64,000 nucleotides of DNA from a virus. Both the position numbers and the translations under genes were made by a program. The number at the start of each line of letters is the position of its first letter. Position 1 is the first letter of the stretch. The stretch is taken from the IMG/VR virus record IMGVR_UViG_3300044632_002025. One strand, given 5' to 3'. This document shows, in pieces, positions 4,402 to 61,904 of the stretch. The notes beneath the pieces are model-generated. The model ran no database searches. It was not told where the DNA came from and was given only the letters and a program-made list of their open reading frames with translations.

Positions 4402-5019
4402 ATGACACCGGAAGAAATTAAACTATTATTAGAGGAATCGCAACAGGCGTTTCTATCCCAACTACAAGGGGAATTGGGAACGCTAAAGGCAGGCATCTTA
4501 AGCGAGGTAGACCGAAAAAACAGTGGATTGGCGAGTAGTCTACAAAAATCCTGGGATAAAAAAACCACTAAAGCACCCGAACCTGAGCCAGAATTAGAAG
4601 TGGAAGTGGAGACACCCAAACAGAAACTAAGTCTTCAAGCCCTACAGAAACAGATTGAAGATTTGAAAAAACAGTCAGAGGAAAAAGACAGAAAAATAGT
4701 TGCCAAAGAATTAGAATCCACATTAAATGCAACAATCTCCAAATTTAAACCGCTAGACTTAGGAATTGCGACCAAAGCCTTTAAGCTACAGTACGAGGAT
4801 AACTTAGTTTACGAGGATGGTGTAGCCTTTGTCAAAAATGGGGATAATGTGGAAAGTCTGGATGAGGCGTTAGGAAAATTCCTAGAAACTGATTTCGGTA
4901 AAAGTCTATTACCCCCGACATCCAAAGCTCGTGGTGCTGGATTAAAACCCCAAAACAGTAGCCCTGCCCCCACAGAGGGGAAACGGGACATTCTGGAAGA
5001 TTTGTTTATTGAGGATTAA
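4402..5019 (+). CDS. putative scaffolding protein
   Basis: Acidic, coiled-coil-like 205-aa protein immediately upstream of the capsid gene. Confidence 0.4.
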   Translation: MTPEEIKLLLEESQQAFLSQLQGELGTLKAGILSEVDRKNSGLASSLQKSWDKKTTKAPEPEPELEVEVETPKQKLSLQALQKQIEDLKKQSEEKDRKIVAKELESTLNATISKFKPLDLGIATKAFKLQYEDNLVYEDGVAFVKNGDNVESLDEALGKFLETDFGKSLLPPTSKARGAGLKPQNSSPAPTEGKRDILEDLFIED

Positions 5020-5533: not shown

Positions 5534-6580
5534 ATGGCAAAGCTTAATTTAGCAGTAGTCAACACGATTTTTTCGGAATTGTTGACCAAAGAGGTAAACC
5601 GTGAAGCAACCTTCTTGTCGTTGCTGTCGAAGTTACCCGAACGTAAGTCCAATATCCAGTGGTCTGTAGGAGTTGGTGGAACGCAAGCAACGGGAGTAGC
5701 AATTACTGGTTCAGCACCTGCGGCCAGCCAAGACGTAACTATTCCGGCACAGTTACCCATCAATAGTTCTTCGTTACAATCTACTTTCACCTTGAACTTG
5801 AAAGAGATTGAGGAAGCTAAAGAAATGGTTTCCAATGCAGAATTACGTCAGTTGCTGTCTGCACAAATGCGTAATGCAGTAGACGAACAAGCTACTACTT
5901 TAAACCGTAAATTATACAATGGAACCGGTGCGATTTCTGATGGAGGAATCATCGGTCTATCCATTGCGGCTGGTACTGGAGATTATGCGGGTATTCCTTC
6001 AGCGACCTACCCTTTATGGCAAGGACAGGTCGTAGATTGCTGGGATGCCGCCGCCGCCGCCGCCGACAAACGCCAAGCCTTAAAAACCGACTTTATGCTG
6101 GAATTAGACCGTAAAATCCGCTACCGTCCTGGTCGGTATGACCTAATCCTAACTACCCCTAAAGTCGTTGAACAATACAAGAAAGTCTTTGAAGCCAATC
6201 GTAGCTTCCAAATCATGACTTTTGACGGCAACCGAGTTCCTTTGGTGGACTTAGGATTCAACGTGGCTGGTTACATGGGAACCCCAATCATCGATGATGT
6301 GTATTGTAACCGTACCCGTACTGCGGCTGAATCGGCCATTACCACTGCTCTCGGTACTGATGTTGACGAAGGTGTAATGTATTTCTTACGTCGTGAAGAC
6401 TTAACGTTCTATTCCGCACCCGTACAGAACTCGTTTTCGGCTAACGGTGTTTATACCTTAATGCGTCAACTGGCTCAAACTAGCTTGTATGTGGACAACT
6501 TCGTAGTTGGTTGTATTGCCCAGTTGCAATTAGCCACTCGGAAAAACGTTGGAGTTATCCGTAATATTAAAGTCGCCTAA
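5534..6580 (+). CDS. putative major capsid protein
   Basis: 348 aa, follows the scaffold-like gene and is followed by a strong terminator. No motif proof. Confidence 0.6.
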   Translation: MAKLNLAVVNTIFSELLTKEVNREATFLSLLSKLPERKSNIQWSVGVGGTQATGVAITGSAPAASQDVTIPAQLPINSSSLQSTFTLNLKEIEEAKEMVSNAELRQLLSAQMRNAVDEQATTLNRKLYNGTGAISDGGIIGLSIAAGTGDYAGIPSATYPLWQGQVVDCWDAAAAAADKRQALKTDFMLELDRKIRYRPGRYDLILTTPKVVEQYKKVFEANRSFQIMTFDGNRVPLVDLGFNVAGYMGTPIIDDVYCNRTRTAAESAITTALGTDVDEGVMYFLRREDLTFYSAPVQNSFSANGVYTLMRQLAQTSLYVDNFVVGCIAQLQLATRKNVGVIRNIKVA

Positions 6581-33246: not shown

Positions 33247-33870
33247 TTGTTTATGAACACTGATAACTGGTTTATGCTCGTTCCTTCTAGAATAGCCTCC
33301 TCCAAATTAGGGCTTCACCCCCATACCCTTAGAAAATATTTTGATGACGGTTTGATTAAGGGGATTAAAAACCCCGCAGGTCAACGATATTACGATGTTG
33401 AATCCTATTTAGCCGACCCTCTTGACAAACCCTCAGTTATCTGTTATGCTAGGGTTAGTTCAAGAAAACAGTCTGCTGATTTGGCTAGACAGGTCGATTT
33501 CTTGAAATCAGTTTACCCCGATTCGGAGATTATTACAGATGTCGGTTCTGGACTTAACTTCAAAAGAAAAGGTATTCAAACCCTATTGGACAGATTACTC
33601 TCAGGAGATTAGTTCACTCTTGCTATCTCCCACCGAGATAGACTCTGCCGATTCGGATTTGAATTGTTCCAATACCTTTTCCTCAAGAACGGTGGAACAA
33701 TCGTGGTTCTCAACAATACTCAAACAAGTCCCGAACAAGAACTTACCCCCTACTTACTATCAATCCTCCATATTTTCAGTTGCAGAGTCTACGGACTTAG
33801 AAAAAACAACAAAAATATCGAGGAAGATAAGACTTTACCCCGACAAAACTCAACAAAATCTACTGAATGA
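33247..33870 (+). pseudogene. tnpA: IS607-type serine recombinase TnpA interrupted by one in-frame TAG (33610-33612)
   Basis: MerR-like HTH, catalytic YARVSSRKQ..DLARQ, then ...LLSGD*FTLAISHRDRLCRFGFE...SPEQEL...FSCRVYGLRK, all in a single frame. Confidence 0.8.
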
Positions 33871-34969
33871 GCTAATCTCTCAATATCGGTTTGTTTACAA
33901 TAAAACTGTAGATTTGCTGATAAACGGTAAAATTGGGGCTAATTGTGATTTAAAGACTAAGAAAGAAAGAAAAGGTTTGTCAAGCTATGACATCCGTGAC
34001 ACATTCTTTCAATTTTGGTTGGAGAAACACACTTGGTTAACCAATTGCATAAACATAAATACAGTAAAGGAGGCTATCACCGAAGCTATCAATGCCCAAC
34101 AAGTAGGGTTTGCCCAATTAAAAGCGGGGTTAGTTGAAAGGTTTGAGTTAAAATTCAAATCTAGAAAAAAGCCCCGACAAACTATCAACCTAAAAAAGGA
34201 AATACTCTCAGCTAAGGGAGTGTTAGCCCCCCGAAACCTAAAACTAGAAACCCCCCTAAAATCAGACACAAGGGGTAGTTTTGATGGTCTAACCCTCACA
34301 ACTACTGGGGGATTGTTCTACCTAATTTATACTGAAGATATTGCTAATAATCCAGAAGTCGAAAACCAAGACCTAAAGATTGTAGCATTAGACCCTGGTG
34401 TTAGAACTTTCCAAACTATTTTCTCGTCTAATGGGGTTTTCGGTAAATTTGGTCAAGAAGCCATTAAAAGATTGGCTAAACTATGCCATAAAGCAGACAA
34501 AATCCAATCTAAAATAGCTAAAACCAAAAACCAAAGTCGGATTAATTATCTAAGAATGTGGCAACAACGAACCACATTAAAGATAAGAAATCTGAGGAAA
34601 GAACTCCACCACAAAATTAGTAGATTTCTAGTAGATAACTTTGATGTAATCCTGCTACCCTGCTTTAACACCGGTGAAATGGTTAAAAAGAAGGACAGAA
34701 AAATCAATAAATCTACTACCCGTTCAATGTTAAATTTTGGACATTATGAGTTTAAGGAATTATTAAAGTTCAAAGCCAATAAATTTGGTAAAAAACTAAT
34801 AATAGTTTCTGAGGCTTATACCTCCAAAACCGTATCATGGACAGGGGAAATAATAGCTAATCTAGGTGGGAGGAAAGTAATCAAATCTCAGAGTAACGAA
34901 AGTTTAGACAGAGATTTAAATGGAGCCAGAGGAATCCTAATAAAATTCTTAACTGAGCTACCCCAATAG
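33539..34969 (+). CDS. tnpB: TnpB (OrfB) RuvC-like transposon-associated protein; true start uncertain (GTG 33692 possible)
   Basis: RKIRLYPDKTQQNLLNELISQYRFVYNK, ALDPGVRTF (RuvC-I Asp), AYTSKT, DRDLNGARGI (RuvC-III Asp). Confidence 0.8.
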   Translation: MSVLDLTSKEKVFKPYWTDYSQEISSLLLSPTEIDSADSDLNCSNTFSSRTVEQSWFSTILKQVPNKNLPPTYYQSSIFSVAESTDLEKTTKISRKIRLYPDKTQQNLLNELISQYRFVYNKTVDLLINGKIGANCDLKTKKERKGLSSYDIRDTFFQFWLEKHTWLTNCININTVKEAITEAINAQQVGFAQLKAGLVERFELKFKSRKKPRQTINLKKEILSAKGVLAPRNLKLETPLKSDTRGSFDGLTLTTTGGLFYLIYTEDIANNPEVENQDLKIVALDPGVRTFQTIFSSNGVFGKFGQEAIKRLAKLCHKADKIQSKIAKTKNQSRINYLRMWQQRTTLKIRNLRKELHHKISRFLVDNFDVILLPCFNTGEMVKKKDRKINKSTTRSMLNFGHYEFKELLKFKANKFGKKLIIVSEAYTSKTVSWTGEIIANLGGRKVIKSQSNESLDRDLNGARGILIKFLTELPQ

Positions 34970-39874: not shown

Positions 39875-40714
39875 ATGGAAATCGTAAAACCCACAACTGT
39901 TAAAGTCCCCGAATTAGATATGGAATTGCAATTTTTTGTCAGTGCAGACGGGAAAACCTGTGGCATGAGTCAGTCTGCGTTAGCCCGATTATGTGGAGTT
40001 CAACGTGGGAGTATGTTCTCAGAGGGTCGGGTTATCGCAAATCTTTCTCAAGAAACCCCCGAATCAAAAACAGTCCCAGAATGCTTGAAACCCTTCCAAG
40101 GTAAGGTTTTCTCCCAGACGCTGAAAGGGGATTGCGACAGTGTTAATCTTGCGAACATTGTCAACAGTAAAGCCGCCGCCGCTATCATTTCCTATTACGG
40201 TTTTGAATCAAAAGCCGCTAATCCAGTGGCTCGAAAAAGTCTTTTAGCTTTTGCTTCAATCGGAATCGACACATGGATTAAATCTGTCACTGGTTATGTC
40301 TCTGACTCAGACCGTCTGGCTAACATTGAAATGGTCATGACGGGTTTAGTTGGTGAAGTACGGGAAATGCGAGAAGAAATCCGTGACTTCAAAAAAGTAG
40401 TCACGGTCTATCCTAAAATCGATGGGTGGAAAAATGGACTAAAAGGTTTGCCCTTTTATCTGCCGGAAGATTTCTCCCTAAAAGATTACCTAGAAGCAAA
40501 GGCTTTAGACTTCACTAACACAGAGTTCCGCAAAATCCGCCTTCAAGTTGCTCAAGCATGGGAAACCTTAATGGGTGAAAAACCCCCAAAACGCCATGTC
40601 TACGGGTTAAAAAACGGCAAGAAAAAACGAATCAGCACTGAGTATTTCTACCGACGGGAAGACATCCCGATGATTGAGGAAATTCTTTTGGGTTTAGACT
40701 TGACAAACCCATAA
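39875..40714 (+). CDS. hypothetical DNA-binding-like protein
   Basis: Intact ORF. N-terminus GMSQSALARLCGV is HTH-like. Confidence 0.4.
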   Translation: MEIVKPTTVKVPELDMELQFFVSADGKTCGMSQSALARLCGVQRGSMFSEGRVIANLSQETPESKTVPECLKPFQGKVFSQTLKGDCDSVNLANIVNSKAAAAIISYYGFESKAANPVARKSLLAFASIGIDTWIKSVTGYVSDSDRLANIEMVMTGLVGEVREMREEIRDFKKVVTVYPKIDGWKNGLKGLPFYLPEDFSLKDYLEAKALDFTNTEFRKIRLQVAQAWETLMGEKPPKRHVYGLKNGKKKRISTEYFYRREDIPMIEEILLGLDLTNP

Positions 40715-40729
40715 CGGCTAAGTTATAAT
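40700..40729 (+). promoter_or_regulatory. promoter TTGACAAACCCATAACGGCTAAGTTATAAT (drives the tRNA)
   Basis: Copy of 39811-39840. Overlaps the last codons of the upstream ORF. Confidence 0.65.
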
Positions 40730-40754
40730 AAAGAGGTCTGGAGCAAAAGACCTT

Positions 40755-40826
40755 CTGGGTTTAGCTTATCGGATAAGCACCGTCCTCATAAGACGGCATA
40801 GGTGGGTTCGACTCCCACAACCCAGA
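40755..40826 (+). tRNA. tRNA with CAU anticodon (Met elongator or Ile2/lysidine type); no encoded CCA
   Basis: Hand fold: acceptor CTGGGTT/AACCCAG, D stem GCTT/AAGC, anticodon stem CCGTC/GACGG with loop CTCATAA, T arm GTGGG-TTCGACT-CCCAC. Confidence 0.85.
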
Positions 40827-40851
40827 TTTGTTCCTTGTTTGGTTTATTTAA

Positions 40852-57380: not shown

Positions 57381-58340
57381 ATGAACCAATTTACCGAAAA
57401 ACTACCCAATCAAGTCACACTAGAGATGGTAAGCTTACCAGCAGGTGAGTTTCTCATGGGTTCTGCTGAAAGCGAGGATGAAAAGCCTCCACACCAAGTT
57501 AAAGTCAACAGTTTTGCTATTGGGAAATATCCCATTACTCAAGCACAATATCAAGCGGTAATGGGAACCAATCCCTCTTATTTTTATAATAATCCCCAAA
57601 ATCCGGTAGAAAGGATTAGTTGGAATGACGCTCAAGCCTTTTGTCAGAAATTGAGTCAAATAACCGGCAAAACCTATCGCCTACCCACAGAAGCGGAATG
57701 GGAATATGCTTGTCGTGCGGATACAACTACTCGCTATTATTTTGGTGATGTTGCCAATCAGTTAGGAAATTACGCTTGGTATGAAGGAAATTCTCAAAAT
57801 ACAACTCATCCTGTGGGTCAGAAAAAGCCCAATGCTTGGGGACTATATGACATGAGTGGTAATGTTTGGGAGTGGTGCGAGGACTATTGGCACGATAGCT
57901 ACGAAAATGCACCAAAGAATGGCAGTGCCTGGGTAACAAATGATAATGATTATCAGTTACTGCGGGGCGGTTCTTGGAGCGACCTTTTGGGTGACTGCCG
58001 TTCCGCTTACCGTTACTACGACAGCCGCCACAACTACGACGACACCGACGGTTTTCGGGTAGTCTGCGACAATCAAATGTTCTTTTACAACGCCTTTAAT
58101 TTCCCCCTTCTTACCTCTAGTGTAAAAGAATTTGCTGTAAAGCTCGAAAAAATGCTAGTAAAGTTAGGACATCGTTTAGCAATAAGCGAAGATGGTCTCT
58201 ACTGTAAAATATATTTCCACCAACCCTATTCCGGTGTTTATCCAGGTGTTTTTGATACTCAAAAAGTGTATCAAATGCTAAATAATTTTACCGAACATAA
58301 AGATTATTTATGGGCTTTTCTCCAAGATTGCAAAGCTTAA
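57381..58340 (+). CDS. FGE-sulfatase (SUMF1/DUF323)-domain protein with an 89-aa C-terminal extension
   Basis: LPAGEFLMGS...HQVKVNSFAIGKYPITQAQY...YRLPTEAEWEYACRA...GLYDMSGNVWEWCED...LRGGSW...GFRVV. Confidence 0.75.
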   Translation: MNQFTEKLPNQVTLEMVSLPAGEFLMGSAESEDEKPPHQVKVNSFAIGKYPITQAQYQAVMGTNPSYFYNNPQNPVERISWNDAQAFCQKLSQITGKTYRLPTEAEWEYACRADTTTRYYFGDVANQLGNYAWYEGNSQNTTHPVGQKKPNAWGLYDMSGNVWEWCEDYWHDSYENAPKNGSAWVTNDNDYQLLRGGSWSDLLGDCRSAYRYYDSRHNYDDTDGFRVVCDNQMFFYNAFNFPLLTSSVKEFAVKLEKMLVKLGHRLAISEDGLYCKIYFHQPYSGVYPGVFDTQKVYQMLNNFTEHKDYLWAFLQDCKA

Positions 58341-58452: not shown

Positions 58453-58522
58453 AGCATCAGGCAAACAAACACGGAAAACAAGATTACGGGTAACGATAAA
58501 CAACCAGTCGAACGCTATAATC

Positions 58523-58550
58523 AGTTATCAGTTATCAGTTATCAGTTATC
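58523..58550. repeat. (AGTTATC)x4 heptamer repeat in the 5'UTR
   Basis: Also x2 at 57339-57352 and x3 at 59210-59230. Confidence 0.9.
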
Positions 58551-58580
58551 AACTATTTGGGACTAACAAAAAAAAAAAAA

Positions 58581-59207
58581 ATGAACCAATTTACCGAAAA
58601 ACTACCCAACGGAGTAACATTAGAAATGGTAAGCTTACCAGCAGGTCAATTTCTCATGGGTTCTTCTGAAAGTGATTCTAAAAAGCCTAAACACCAAGTT
58701 AAAGTAAACAGTTTTGCCATTGGCAAATATCCCATTACTCAGGCACAGTATCAAGCAGTAATGGGAACCAATCCCTCTTACTTTGAAAATAGTCCCCAAA
58801 ATCCAGTAGAACAAGTTAGTTGGGACGATGCTCAAGCCTTTTGCCTAAAATTAAGTGAAATCACAGGCAAAACCTATCGTCTTCCCACAGAAGCTGAATG
58901 GGAATATGCCTGTCGAGCAGGTACAACTACTCACTATTATTTTGGTGATGATGCTAATCAGTTAGGGGAGTACGCTTGGTATGACGAAAATTCTAATAAC
59001 AAAACTCATCCTGTAGGACAGAAAAAGCCCAATGGTTGGGGGCTTTATGACATGAGTGGTAATGTTTGGGAGTGGTGTGAGGATATTTGTCTGCGGGGCG
59101 GTTCTTGGCACATCTTCCCTTATTACTGTCGTTCTGCTAACCGCCTCCAGAACAACCCCGTCATCCACTACGACGACTTTGGTTTTCGGGTTGCGTGCGA
59201 CGATTAG
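58581..59207 (+). CDS. FGE-sulfatase-domain protein, shorter paralogue
   Basis: Same motifs as 57381. Start taken at MNQFTEKLPN after the A13 tract. Lacks ~23 aa before RGGSW. Confidence 0.7.
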   Translation: MNQFTEKLPNGVTLEMVSLPAGQFLMGSSESDSKKPKHQVKVNSFAIGKYPITQAQYQAVMGTNPSYFENSPQNPVEQVSWDDAQAFCLKLSEITGKTYRLPTEAEWEYACRAGTTTHYYFGDDANQLGEYAWYDENSNNKTHPVGQKKPNGWGLYDMSGNVWEWCEDICLRGGSWHIFPYYCRSANRLQNNPVIHYDDFGFRVACDD

Positions 59208-59257: not shown

Positions 59258-59710
59258 ATGGATAACCGTCTAACGCAAGTGTTTGATTTTAACTCCATTC
59301 AGCCCATTGAAGGAATCCCTTTTCAGTCTCTTTCTCTTTATGGAGTAGATTTATACTTTCAGCCAGTATCTGGTTTAAAAGGTATCTCTGTATCTGGTTT
59401 GGCTAAATTGCTGGAATACGAGAAGGGCAGTCTGTATCAGGAGTTAAGTGAAATCCCCCCTGGATGCCATTTACCTGACAACGAGTTTTGGTCGTTTGAA
59501 AATTGCGTGAAAGAAGTAAAATCCTTATCAAATGGGGGTTTACAAAAGATTTTCCTAATCCCAGAGCATGGACTATTTTTCACTCTGGAAGCTATAAAGC
59601 TCTGGACTTACTCTCGTCGAATCAGAACCAATGCTTTGATTCTACAAGCTAAATTTGCTAAAGCAGGTTGCAAACTTACTACCATGCTTCATTCGATAAG
59701 GCTGGGGTAA
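59258..59710 (+). CDS. hypothetical protein (Bro/antirepressor-like N-terminus, unproven)
   Basis: Intact ORF. ATG 59258 is preferred over GTG 59249. Confidence 0.35.
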   Translation: MDNRLTQVFDFNSIQPIEGIPFQSLSLYGVDLYFQPVSGLKGISVSGLAKLLEYEKGSLYQELSEIPPGCHLPDNEFWSFENCVKEVKSLSNGGLQKIFLIPEHGLFFTLEAIKLWTYSRRIRTNALILQAKFAKAGCKLTTMLHSIRLG

Positions 59711-59808
59711 CAAGTGGGGGGGGTTCAAGGCTTTTTTCAAAATACCTAGACTACTACCAATACTTTTTAGCCCCAGCAATGGACATAACCAATAACTAAT
59801 TTGACCAG

Positions 59809-59829
59809 CCCCTTCCAAAGGGGTTTTTT
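59809..59829 (+). terminator. rho-independent terminator CCCCTT-cca-AAGGGG-T6
   Basis: Paralogue of 1748-1768. Confidence 0.7.
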
Positions 59830-59857
59830 ATTGTCCGTTATTTGACGGGGTTGGGAC

Positions 59858-59912
59858 ACAACTGGGGGGGGGTTCTGAGATTTTTCAAGAATGGGATAAC
59901 CCCCCTAGTTGT
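59858..59912. repeat. G-run/C-run hairpin ACAACTGGGGGGGGG...CCCCCCTAGTTGT
   Basis: Inverted arms with a 27-nt loop. Confidence 0.7.
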
Positions 59913-60072
59913 CCCCTAAACCTCTTTTTAACCTTAGTCTGACTAGGGTTTCCCACGTCTTATCCTGCCAACTAGGGGGGTGGGGGGGTTCATTCTTTTT
60001 TTCACGGGACACCCCCTAATTTCACCCCGTAGCCAATTTAAACTTATTTGACCAAACTCATCTGTTAGCCCC

Positions 60073-60101
60073 TTGACATCTTTTTTCAATTTTGCTAGAA
60101 T
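60073..60101 (+). promoter_or_regulatory. promoter TTGACA-N17-TAGAAT
   Basis: Followed by an ORF-free 220 nt and a terminator. Confidence 0.55.
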
Positions 60102-60107
60102 CAAATA

Positions 60108-60328
60108 GTAAACACATACACCAAGTTCGCCCATTCTACATGGGCAGACAGTCTTAATCGGGCAAGGTCGGAACCCTAGCCTTAAACAAGTTTTTGGGGT
60201 TCTGGACTTATCGCCCGATTCTTGACTGGTTTGCCTCCCTCCCCCTGTTAGCGAATGTTTAGCCCCTTACCTGAAACTCAGTGCTTAGACTTTTAGAATA
60301 AAGTTTTCCCGAAGTCTAAAAGTTTTTT
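60108..60328 (+). ncRNA. candidate ~220-nt small RNA
   Basis: Promoter 60073-60101. Internal stems GCCCAT/ATGGGC and AATCGGGC/GCCCGATT. Terminator TTAGACTT...AAGTCTAA-agT6 (60285-60328). No ORF. Confidence 0.35.
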
Positions 60329-60333
60329 CTCGA

Positions 60334-60492
60334 ACCCCTTGACATTTAATCTACTCTCTGTTATACTGGGGTTAACCCAACAAAAACTGGTTAAGTGAGA
60401 ACCAAGCTTAATCAATCAAGGTTAAACCCCCTTTAACTAGGGTAAAACGGGCAGTTAGCTCGTGTTAGCTTGTGGAGTGGGGTTAAGCCGTC
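60334..60492 (+). repeat. promoter-leader cassette copy 3 (promoter 60339-60367), including a copy of the first 5 codons of the sigma gene
   Basis: Near-identical to the reverse complement of 10028-10188, with a 9-10-nt internal duplication. Confidence 0.85.
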
Positions 60493-60506
60493 TTACCCCC
60501 CTGTGA
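60477..60506 (+). pseudogene. 9-codon remnant of the sigma-factor gene start (GTG GGG TTA AGC CGT ...TGA)
   Basis: MGLSR matches the first five codons of ORF 9517-10044, then diverges to a stop. Confidence 0.6.
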
Positions 60507-60586
60507 AACAGGAAATTAATGTTAATGAAAGTTAACATTTTTTATAACGGGAGAAAATCCCCAGTCAAGTTTGGTGCAAGAGTTCT

Positions 60587-60836
60587 GAGGTCAAATTAAA
60601 CTCTAGAACAAACATTTGACCTGCCAAGAAATAATAAATGTATAATTTGGTACATTTTGGGTTAATTGGTTTAAATTGGTTTAAAGGACATCAACATCGC
60701 CAAACCATTCCAGCACGGGCGTTGCGGGGATTCCCATAATGGAAACCATCTACGGCAGGGTCAAACCGGAGGGACAGGGTCAGACATAGAAAAACTGGGA
60801 TAACCCCCCCAGTTGATAGGTTTTCTTAGAGCTATG
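60587..60836 (+). repeat. conserved blocks i-iv, paralogue of 2884-3127
   Basis: Colinear at an offset of ~57.70-57.71 kb with substitutions and small indels. Confidence 0.8.
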
Positions 60837-61065
60837 CCTTTAGAAATAAGTATAAATACTCATACCCTGTTTGAACTTGGTTTAATGGGGGAAGTGAGGG
60901 GGTAGCCCAAGAAAAAACCAAGAACCCCCCCCTACCTACCCCCCTAATTGCTGGTGAAACTTTATGTCTAGTACATTTGTATTACACCCTATCTCGACTG
61001 GGGCAGTGCGGGGGAAAGCAAGGGTCAACCAAGAAAAAACCGACCTACCCCCTACCCACTTGACA
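60837..61065 (+). repeat. repeat module M copy 4 plus one GGCAGTGCGGGG subunit
   Basis: CTTTAGAAATAAGTATAAATACTCATACCC ... GAAAAAACCAAGAACCCCCCCCTACCTACCCCCC ... GTCTAGTACATTTG. Confidence 0.75.
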
Positions 61066-61089
61066 AAACCTATTAGCCCAAGATATAAT
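61060..61089 (+). promoter_or_regulatory. promoter TTGACA-N18-TATAAT
   Basis: Places the transcription start at about G61096, the first base of the tRNA-like terminal stem. Confidence 0.6.
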
Positions 61090-61095
61090 AAGAAT

Positions 61096-61291
61096 GCTAT
61101 TGTGGCTTGGTAGCCAGAGGTTTGAAACGGAAACCTCCAACCGAAAAGGAATACCCACATTAACTAACCTTTAGTTAGTGGTTCAACTGGAATTTGCGAA
61201 TCCACCAAATCTGTAAAAGCTATGGGTGAGGGAAGGGCGTTTCGCCAGAAGATTTAGGACTATTTTGCGGGTTCAATTCCCGTCAATAGCA
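61096..61291 (+). ncRNA. 196-nt tRNA-like non-coding RNA (acceptor-like terminal stem plus canonical T arm, no anticodon arm)
   Basis: GCTATTG (61096-61102) pairs with CAATAGC (61284-61290). T arm GCGGG-TTCAATT-CCCGT (61267-61283). Internal hairpins TGGC/GCCA, GAGGTTT/AAACCTC, TAACTAA/TTAGTTA. Confidence 0.45.
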
Positions 61292-61314
61292 CTTTAATTG
61301 GTTTTAATCCCCAC

Positions 61315-61343
61315 TTGACAACCAGAAACATAAAGTATATAAT
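61315..61343 (+). promoter_or_regulatory. promoter TTGACA-N17-TATAAT
   Basis: Consensus hexamers upstream of gene 61365. Confidence 0.7.
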
Positions 61344-61364
61344 GGAAAAAACGGAGAAATTTTA

Positions 61365-61904
61365 ATGACCCAAGTAAAAATCTATCTGGCTGGACGTATC
61401 CACGGGTTAACGTACCAACAAGCCACTGGTTGGCGTAATGAACTTAAAAGCTATGTTAAGGTTTGGCCAGTAGAAGTCTTAGACCCTATGGATAAATCCA
61501 AAACCCTCGAAGCCCTAGACCGCCCCATTAACAACTCTGAAACTGAATTAAACGGGTATAATCCTGGGCAAATCTACAACGATGACATTTCTGCGGTAGA
61601 AAAAGCAAATATCATTTATGCCTACCTACCTTGGGGAAGCGGGCATGGTACTTCCTTTGAAATTGGTTATGCCCAGGGTTTGAATAAAATCGTCTCTAGT
61701 ATCCCCTCCTTGAGTCATTTTTTCCCCTTTAAGACTATTATCGTGGTTGGAACTCCAGATATGGTGGGACATCCTTTCTGGTCTGAAGAGGCAGGAATAA
61801 ATTTCTTCACGCTAGACCAAATTCAGGAGGCTAAAGAGTTTTTAGCAAAAATAGTTTTTGGGGAGCGTGAAACCGAAAAAACTGGGTTAAACTCCAGAAG
61901 TTAG
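61365..61904 (+). CDS. nucleoside 2-deoxyribosyltransferase-like protein
   Basis: KIYLAGRIHG...W R......GTSFEIGYAQG pattern. Confidence 0.5.
   Translation: MTQVKIYLAGRIHGLTYQQATGWRNELKSYVKVWPVEVLDPMDKSKTLEALDRPINNSETELNGYNPGQIYNDDISAVEKANIIYAYLPWGSGHGTSFEIGYAQGLNKIVSSIPSLSHFFPFKTIIVVGTPDMVGHPFWSEEAGINFFTLDQIQEAKEFLAKIVFGERETEKTGLNSRS

Follow-up and report, generated by a model that had tools for sequence, protein, structure and literature searches.

Viral tRNA mimicry and the layout of transfer-messenger RNA (tmRNA, SsrA), which rescues ribosomes, are both already known. Species 1 and 2 of phage T4 (rnaC/rnaD) are small stable RNAs with tRNA-like termini and an obscure function, and YrlA-type RNAs, whose 5' and 3' ends form a Ro-binding stem and whose tRNA-like module is internal, occur in some phages. 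In tmRNA, helix 5 holds the stop codon in a hairpin loop. A G3.U70 pair is conserved in all known ssrA sequences, a hairpin can replace the first pseudoknot of tmRNA (PK1), and PK2 to PK4 are dispensable (PMC3968760). A73 together with A35-C36 are the valine determinants of tRNA-Val and of tRNA-like structures (TLS) of the turnip yellow mosaic virus (TYMV) type, and some valine TLS tolerate large stem-loop insertions; for bacterial leucyl-tRNA synthetase (LeuRS), A73 and tertiary contacts of the D loop with the T loop suffice, changes in the long arm are tolerated and the anticodon is unneeded (PMC9976931). Here we describe a locus in the viral sequence IMGVR_UViG_3300044632_002025, a stretch of 64,000 nt (hereafter the window; all positions of the RNA are on the plus strand). 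On sequence evidence we regard this locus (61096–61291) as a real, independently transcribed non-coding RNA gene, about 196 nt long, of phages of Microcystis, a cyanobacterium that forms blooms. The predicted RNA is a cloverleaf mimic that carries an insert of approximately 125 nt at the position of the variable arm of class II tRNAs. This architecture is undescribed in Rfam, in the GenBank annotation of the Ma-LMM01 phage group and in the literature searched, and the range of the RNA known so far is confined to Microcystis phages.

The gene is preceded by a sigma-70 type promoter, TTGACA-N18-TATAAT, that had been pointed out in an earlier note on this DNA and that matches the consensus at 12 of 12 positions. 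Its -10 element lies 6 nt before G61096, the probable transcription start. Three perfect sites of this kind are present in the 64-kb window, compared with 0.04 expected from shuffles. The other two are located upstream of tRNA-Met (CAT, 40754–40827), the sole tRNA of the window that is called by ARAGORN, and 25 nt downstream of the RNA gene, where the promoter would drive a nucleoside 2-deoxyribosyltransferase-like gene (61365–61904). The tRNA-Met promoter (region 40700–40827) ends 24 nt ahead of its tRNA, in contrast to the leaderless tRNA-like RNA. Nearly all full-length homologues of the RNA gene have a TTGACA -35 element and a -10 element (TAGAAT, TATAAT or TAGGAT) with the same 6-nt gap to the first nucleotide (G1); the -10 element reads TAGCAT in one sub-lineage. 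At the 3' end, A61291 is followed by CUU and an encoded CCA is absent.

A sensitive BLAST search returned a single family of matches, namely the Microcystis phages Ma-LMM01, MaMV-DC, MaMV-DH01 and MaMV-CH/DL (genus Fukuivirus). Identity with the Ma-LMM01 type is 74% and extends exactly from the promoter to the discriminator. The Ma-LMM01 copy (region NC_008562 144,860–145,080) lies where annotation is lacking, between gp162 and a tRNA-Tyr on the minus strand. None of the eight proteins flanking this copy has a homologue in the window (0/8) and no neighbour genes are shared, the 1.25 kb upstream of the RNA gene (59700–60950) match no phage record, and a comparison over 24 kb of the window gave, elsewhere, a sole match between the two phage types, 365 bp within a kinase gene. 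The RNA gene is the sole shared non-coding element found in this comparison between two otherwise near-unrelated Microcystis phage lineages, and its sharing therefore points to the horizontal spread of an accessory function that is of use against Microcystis.

Scans of IMG/VR, JGI metagenomes and 185,579 species genomes, together with protein-anchored retrieval of relatives and nhmmer searches over 161 sequences, recovered approximately 70 loci, all of which fall into two clades; a third clade was not found. The window-type clade includes L030, L040, L043, L076, L097, and L140–143, and the Ma-LMM01-type clade comprises 31 distinct mature sequences. The remaining matches were false positives (tRNA arrays, unrelated genes), and the sole 'bacterial' matches were mis-binned phage contigs (L050, L138, L139). 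Among the 185,579 species genomes, the T arm and acceptor end were found in no host genome but in two mis-binned phage contigs only, and the RNA gene is therefore not a copy of a host tRNA that serves as a phage attachment site (attP).

The cloverleaf body was partly recognised in the earlier note. As stated there, GCTATTG (61096–61102) pairs perfectly with CAATAGC (61284–61290), which is preceded by the T arm GCGGG-TTCAATT-CCCGT (61267–61283) and followed by a discriminator-like A. Both the terminal pairing and the T arm, with an invariant T stem, are maintained across 23 distinct sequences of homologues, as would be expected of a functional element under the check proposed at the time. The acceptor-like stem (P1) has two compensatory pairs (UU..AA in the window and GA..UC in Ma-LMM01), wobble changes, and G1:C, G1:U and A1:U variants. 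The description of the RNA as lacking an anticodon arm does not hold, however, as the acceptor strand is followed by a D-like hairpin (61103–61116) and by a hairpin at the anticodon-arm position (61117–61137). Pair 9:20 of the D-like arm differs between the window (G:C) and the Ma-LMM01 clade (A:U), with 100% of cells paired, and the anticodon-like arm shows two compensatory pairs and a stem of 6–7 bp across relatives. The notion of a tRNA mimic with a large insert thus stands with regard to the acceptor/T minihelix and the length of about 196 nt, but the insert is in the variable-arm position and does not replace the anticodon arm; approximately 129 nt (61138–61266) separate the anticodon-like stem from the T stem. 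The motif GGTTCRANTCC occurs only twice in the window, in the RNA gene and in tRNA-Met. A second GGTTCAA motif, which had been likened to a T loop, exists in the window at 61180–61186, but is unconserved and reads GTTTCAAAA in the other clade.

We analysed covariation with a model of 23 distinct sequences that included P1, the D-like and anticodon-like arms, the insert helices P2, P3 and P5, the T arm, and a pairing between the anticodon-like loop and the insert. In this model 98.7% of cells are paired. Changes on both sides of a pair number 12, versus 1.1 in shuffles (0 of 500 reach 12) and 0–2 when partners were slid by 1–3 columns. RNAalifold independently finds P1, the D-like arm, the anticodon-like arm, P2, the hairpin H1 of the insert, P5 and the T arm. 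Compensatory changes support all cloverleaf helices except the invariant T stem.

ARAGORN, as had been suggested, and Rfam called nothing at curated thresholds: the native sequence gave no ARAGORN call in default, relaxed or tmRNA mode, and the RNA gene had no Rfam match at gathering thresholds. The sole match in a permissive Rfam E-value search was that of the T arm to positions 348–362 of the tmRNA model (13 bits). After deletion of the insert in silico, ARAGORN recognised a cloverleaf, tRNA-Val(aac), in both clades and with every linker length at a relaxed threshold; at the default threshold 16/30 of the insert-deleted Ma-LMM01 constructs were called and none of the window's.

P2 closes the insert and in Ma-LMM01 is ACUUAAU/AUUAAGU at the same place, with three compensatory pairs in aligned columns. 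H1 is variable; its Ma-LMM01 counterpart, GCAAAAAUA-CCUU-UAUUUUUGU, is unrelated in sequence and likewise forms a hairpin. Because the H1 loop sequence varies freely, the RNA has no PK1-type pseudoknot; a candidate pseudoknot of the H1 loop with AAAGG of the linker was rejected, as the loop sequence is unconserved. P3 has two compensatory pairs (G:C to A:U between the clades and U:A to C:G in L006) and an A.C exception in L003. RNAalifold prefers a competitor of P3, in which RAAUUU (61190–95) pairs with AGAUUU (61250–55) and covariation is absent. A further alternative fold, the small hairpin GGCG-UUU-CGCC, is incompatible with P3 and with the insert strand that pairs with the anticodon-like loop because it overlaps both. 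P5 is supported by one compensatory pair and two one-sided compatible changes, with 100% of cells paired. Between the clades, blocks of the insert 12, 22 and 23 nt long have at most one difference each, and the surrounding stems are wholly turned over. The longest invariant block, GUGAGGGAAGGGCGUUUCG, is the same in both clades (19-mer found in 45 IMG/VR loci). We also observed that AAUUUGCGAA (61196–61205, at the start of a candidate reading frame) can pair at 10 positions, several of them G.U, with UUUGCGGGUU (61263–61272, 5' side of the T stem). Both sequences are invariant, so that no covariation is available for this pairing, which may reflect an alternative fold or be the leftover of a duplication.

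The anticodon-like loop reads RAAACGN, has an A at position 33, and is 7, 8 (L100) or 9 nt long (L055, L059, L066, L103, L106), the extra nucleotides being inserted 5' of a constant GAAACG core. Because its length varies and U33 is missing, the loop does not decode. Its GAAACG (61124–61129) is exactly complementary to CGUUUC (61238–61243) of the insert, and this complement is invariant in both clades. In L069 the loop has changed from G to A together with a change of the partner from C to U, and L003 and L037 carry the A.C intermediate. A loop-to-insert kissing pair is likely, but has a single event in its support.

Two variants of the gene depart from this organisation. In a circulating sub-lineage of the Ma-LMM01 type represented by six samples (L008, L010, L028, L031, L047, L098), the acceptor 3' strand CTCTAGTAC is replaced by CTGGGGAC, and an alternative acceptor partner was not found within 300 nt downstream of the L008-type allele. 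In L005 (also L009, L017, L039, L095, and L156–L159) the intact copy is accompanied, 1.2 kb upstream, by a truncated duplicate of the gene (4770–4890 for the duplicate and 6053–6249 for the intact copy in L005). The duplicate consists of a degenerate -35 element, a TAGAAT -10 element and the first ~37 nt, followed by a terminator, AACAGAGGG-ACAA-CCCTCTGTTTTTT. Four small minus-strand open reading frames (ORFs; 56, 76, 132 and 52 amino acids) lie between the two copies, an arrangement that suggests insertion of a gene cassette by recombination at the RNA gene.

Table 1. Predicted features of the RNA gene and its promoter in the window
Feature	Positions	Strand	Sequence and partners	Basis
Sigma-70 type promoter	61060–61089	+	TTGACA 61060–61065, 18-nt spacer, TATAAT 61084–61089	12/12 match
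Acceptor-like stem, 5' strand	61096–61102	+	GCUAUUG; 7/7 pairs with 61284–61290	Covariation
D-like hairpin	61103–61116	+	UGGCU/AGCCA, 5 bp; UGGU tetraloop (G18/G19-like GG)	Covariation
Hairpin at anticodon-arm position	61117–61137	+	7-bp GAGGUUU/AAACCUC; loop GAAACGG 61124–61130	Covariation
Linker	61138–61149	+	CAACCGAAAAGG	Same sequence in both clades
P2, 5' strand (closes the 125-nt insert)	61150–61155	+	AAUACC; pairs with 61257–61264	
H1, variable hairpin	61156–61180	+	CAC-AUU-AACUAA CCU UUAGUU-A-GUG	Folding
P3, 5' strand	61187–61190	+	CUGG; pairs with CCAG 61245–61248	
Candidate frame without start codon	61196–61216	+	GCG AAU CCA CCA AAU CUG UAA (would encode ANPPNL)	Silent-only changes
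P5-like hairpin	61209–61227	+	AUCUG 61209–61213/UGGGU 61223–61227; UAA at loop start	Covariation
Most conserved block	61226–61248	+	GUGAGGGAAGGGCGUUUCGCCAG; includes CGUUUC 61238–61243	Clade comparison
Conserved junction	61250–61256	+	AGAUUUA	Alignment, RNAalifold
P2, 3' strand	61257–61264	+	GG-ac-UAUU; pairs with 61150–61155	
Canonical T arm	61267–61283	+	GCGGG-UUCAAUU-CCCGU	Kept across 23 distinct sequences; T stem invariant
Acceptor-like stem, 3' strand, and discriminator	61284–61291	+	CAAUAGC, A61291; pairs with 61096–61102	

We tentatively read this RNA as an effector or decoy on a tRNA scaffold, with host tRNA or the translation machinery as its target, an interpretation that we rate somewhat below an even chance. 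Under this reading, host RNA polymerase would start at G61096, and a processing step by RNase P would be unneeded because transcription starts at G1. The host RNase Z and CCA-adding enzyme would mature the 3' end at A61291 (A73). The tRNA shape would provide stability and access to tRNA-handling proteins, and docking of the loop GAAACG on the insert CGUUUC would compact the molecule. The working part would be the insert, in line with its near-invariant blocks, and it would bind or titrate a host factor such as the ribosome, a synthetase or a nuclease that targets tRNA. The RNA would be exchanged between phages of one defence-rich host and would not serve as a template for protein synthesis; the defence-gene load of Microcystis is the largest known (PMC5780444). 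The RNA would represent a new type of RNA-based counter-defence if its insert titrates a translation factor or a defence directed at tRNA.

Several points weigh against an effector or decoy. No target or partner was identified for the insert, and the published Ma-LMM01 transcriptome paper makes no mention of the locus. The z-scores of the minimum free energy are modest (window, -2.4; Ma-LMM01, -1.6), and the case for the structure thus rests on covariation and not on thermodynamics. With two clades only, a single deep split supplies most of this covariation. By a hand tally, pairing survives 10 of the 14 stem substitutions that fall within the Ma-LMM01 clade. By our own estimate about half of all transitions keep pairing by chance, and polymorphism within the clade is therefore uninformative on structure. 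The inner fold of the insert is ambiguous, as P3 competes with the RAAUUU/AGAUUU helix. As the 3' acceptor strand is lost in the L008-type allele, either the acceptor stem is dispensable or this allele is dead, and this loss together with the L005-type duplicate limits any claim that the gene is essential. Finally, a decoy alone explains neither the tmRNA-like layout of the RNA nor the silent-only changes in a short reading frame that begins with GCG in the insert.

This frame, GCG AAT CCA CCA AAT CTG TAA at 61196–61216, has no start codon, and in view of it the earlier statement that a tag ORF is missing was too strong. The corresponding frame of Ma-LMM01 is GCG AAU CCA CCG AAC UUG GCA AAG AUU GAG UGA, and both share the consensus GCG AAU CCA CCR AAY YUR. 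In the shared 18 nt, all six substitutions are silent in the GCG frame, as compared to 1/6 and 0/6 in the other frames (p ~0.0015). Three of the six also preserve P5 pairing; for the remaining three p is ~0.025 before correction for three frames. An in-frame ATG, GTG or TTG after the preceding stop was not found in Ma-LMM01, the sequence of which was read directly, and indels in H1 break any longer version of the GCG frame.

The frame is central to the rival reading that survives best, a miniature tmRNA analogue that would be aminoacylated, enter stalled ribosomes and resume translation on GCG AAU CCA CCR AAY YUR, and so rescue ribosomes in an infected host that has many toxin-antitoxin systems. 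We consider this unlikely. Like tmRNA helix 2 (PMC3968760), the insert sits at the variable-arm position, where it is closed by P2, and H1 is at the place of PK1, 14–17 nt ahead of the frame. The frame has neither a Shine-Dalgarno (SD) sequence nor a start codon, starts with GCG-AAY as do cyanobacterial tags (ANNIV...), and accumulates silent substitutions only (6/6). UCAA(AA)C is found upstream of the frame in the phage RNA and in cyanobacterial tmRNA alike, and the stop codon of the window clade sits in a hairpin loop. With regard to charging, A73 plus the A35/C36-like nucleotides, or the class II shape, would suit valyl-tRNA synthetase (ValRS) or LeuRS (PMC9976931). The 28 cyanobacterial tmRNAs that we retrieved resume at GCG AAC AAC, encoding the tag ANNIVPFARKAAPVAA and relatives, after ...CUCAAAACAAAAGUAACU, and the phage RNA has UUUCAAAACUGAAAUUU ahead of GCG AAU. 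Descent from host tmRNA was considered and rejected, as only GCG-AAY and the UCAAAAC-like stretch are common to the phage RNA and these 28 tmRNAs; because the tRNA-like domains are unrelated, homology to host tmRNA is not shown.

Against a tmRNA analogue stands position 3:70 (alignment pair 3:198), which is never G3.U70: of the 23 distinct sequences, 22 have U-A and the L008 allele has U-G. The same pair was among the grounds on which the earlier note concluded, rightly, that this is no standard tmRNA. Neither the ARAGORN tmRNA mode nor the Rfam tmRNA models recognise the RNA, its D-like and anticodon-like hairpins occupy the place of SmpB, and a gene for SmpB was not found in Microcystis phages. 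The tag would have six codons in the window clade, which is below the known 8–35 residues, and ten in Ma-LMM01, and its C-terminus is neither conserved nor hydrophobic. Moreover, three of the six silent changes are equally well explained by P5 pairing, and three of the six codons show no difference between the clades, silent sites included, which implies constraint at the RNA level. The G-to-A change that converts UGA to UAA in the Ma-LMM01 clade, seemingly from stop to stop, also occurs in the window clade, where the position falls outside the frame. Based on these comparisons the RNA may work like tmRNA, but it cannot be filed as one. Translation of the insert, if it occurs, would make this RNA the first tmRNA-like system to lack alanine identity.

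In an elaborated version, which we regard as improbable, the RNA would be an all-RNA tmRNA analogue that needs neither alanyl-tRNA synthetase (AlaRS) nor SmpB and is charged by ValRS (through A35, C36 and A73) or by LeuRS (through A73 and the class II shape). The anticodon-like loop would pair in cis with CGUUUC, which contains the valine codon GUU, and would thereby present a codon-anticodon helix to ribosomes that nucleases of Microcystis toxin or abortive-infection systems have stalled; translation would resume at the GCG at 61196. If true, the phage would restore ribosome capacity during infection by means of such an RNA. Aminoacylation is conceivable given the nucleotides present at these positions.

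The possibility that the locus has no RNA function, being either a decaying tRNA gene with a small mobile insertion or an attachment site that copies the 3' end of a host tRNA, appears very improbable to us. It could account for the resemblance of P2 to short terminal inverted repeats, for the loss of the acceptor 3' strand in one sub-lineage and for the truncated 5' duplicate in L005-type contigs. Yet the ends of the insert covary and its interior is invariant, which is the reverse of what a transposon would leave, both clades retain the consensus promoter at an unchanged distance, and the gene is retained in two lineages that have almost nothing else in common. An attachment site is further contradicted by the 185,579 species genomes, as no bacterial genome among them carries the T arm and acceptor end.

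We give even less credence to a decoding tRNA, be it tRNA-Val(AAC) or a tRNA that contains an intron or whose variable arm is exceptionally long. ARAGORN does call tRNA-Val(aac) once the insert is deleted and calls a tRNA in the native sequence with its intron option. The intron-mode calls were rejected because the clades disagree (Phe(gaa) versus Pro(ggg)), and an anticodon stem split in this way would have no 3' partner. The putative anticodon loop has A33 and differs in length (7, 8 or 9 nt) among close relatives, and its stem has 6–7 bp instead of 5. To our knowledge, anticodons with A34 are limited to tRNA-Arg in bacteria, which speaks against AAC. In addition, conservation is higher in the insert than in the tRNA stems, the reverse of an intron or spacer. 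The earlier conclusion that this is not a normal tRNA is thus borne out by the anticodon arm, the length of the variable region and the failure of detection.

The likeness to YrlA and other bacterial Y-RNAs that was proposed in the earlier note, and with it a role as a partner of the Ro (Rsr) protein, has very little left to support it. What the two share is a tRNA-like module within a phage RNA of ~200 nt. The topology is reversed, as the free ends form an acceptor stem that is stacked on the T arm; the Y-RNA and YrlA families gave no match at E<=10; and the TROVE domain was absent among 20 ORFs scanned, which are part of the ORFs of the window. Nor were tRNA-related enzymes found among these 20 ORFs. 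A conventional small protein on either strand has next to no likelihood, since the mechanically called ORFs that overlap the gene (minus strand 60936–61160, 74 amino acids; plus strand 61094–61174 and 61226–61297) are unconserved in Ma-LMM01, where GTG CTA GAG TAG terminates immediately and the frames are disrupted by indels, an SD sequence is absent, substitutions in stems are compensatory, and the frame AUG GGU GAG../UUG AGU GAG.. has several non-silent changes by hand translation.

The RNA gene lies in a stretch of ~1.6 kb without a plausible ORF (59711–61364). Four consensus-like plus-strand promoters are present there (60073, 60339, 61060, 61315), as are G8/C7-rich repeats of the form ACWGGGGGGGGTTC...TTTTTCA (at ~59712, 59861 and 59973) and GGGATAACCCCCC (59893 and 60798); this stretch may hold further small RNAs or regulatory repeats. 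Upstream of it, two adjacent ORFs (57381–58340 and 58557–59207) encode FGE-sulfatase (formylglycine-generating enzyme-like) domains (E 4e-56 and 1e-49), an unusual cargo for a phage. Between them, 34 bp (58519–58552) are identical to a segment of Microcystis phage Mic1 (MN013189, 59827–59860) that is unannotated there. At 33539–34969, a 476-amino-acid ORF has OrfB_IS605, Cas12f1-like TNB and HTH_OrfB domains and represents a TnpB-type transposon nuclease, next to which a guide (omega) RNA might be encoded.

Compared with the systems described to date, the effector or decoy RNA that we propose resembles YrlA in being an RNA of the ~100–200-nt class with a tRNA-like module, but it has no Rfam match and a Ro gene was not found nearby among the 20 ORFs scanned. 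The T4 stable RNAs are co-transcribed with and processed from a tRNA cluster, unlike the RNA described here. The 7-bp acceptor stem, the discriminator and the 5-bp T stem with a UUCRANN loop are those of a canonical tRNA, whereas the 5-bp anticodon stem, the 7-nt loop with U33 and a purine at position 37, and the variable region of 4–5 nt (class I) or up to ~25 nt (class II) have no counterpart. The core recalls class II tRNA and tRNA-Sec or allo-tRNA, in which the D arm is closed and has a YGGU loop of 4 nt and the anticodon-arm stem has at least 6 bp. As in class II tRNAs, an extra arm is located between the anticodon and T arms, and A73 is that of tRNA-Leu and tRNA-Tyr. This arm is, however, a multi-helix domain of ~125 nt and not <=25 nt, the acceptor/T arrangement is 7/5 and not the 8/5 of tRNA-Sec, and the loop lacks U33, a fixed length and a usable anticodon.

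Two further systems share parts of the design. Differences from tmRNA comprise the U-A pair at 3:70, the D-like and anticodon-like hairpins where tmRNA has none and SmpB binds, the lack of pseudoknots, the length (196 nt versus ~385 nt in cyanobacteria), a frame of 6–10 codons without a conserved hydrophobic end, and the failure of ARAGORN and Rfam to detect the phage RNA. Shared with tmRNA are the acceptor/T-arm minihelix with a discriminator A, a large structured domain at the variable-arm position closed, like the mRNA-like domain of tmRNA, by a helix that is comparable to helix 2 in topology only, a hairpin at the PK1 position, a candidate start-codon-less Ala-Asn frame, and a hairpin around the stop codon. 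The TYMV-type valine TLS forms the 3' end of an RNA genome and has a pseudoknotted acceptor, whereas the phage RNA is predicted to be the product of a separate promoter-driven gene of a DNA phage with a normal acceptor stem. The phage RNA has an AAC triplet in a loop of varying length and A73, and like this TLS it would be a non-decoding viral tRNA mimic with an A35-C36-type loop and a discriminator A (PMC9976931).

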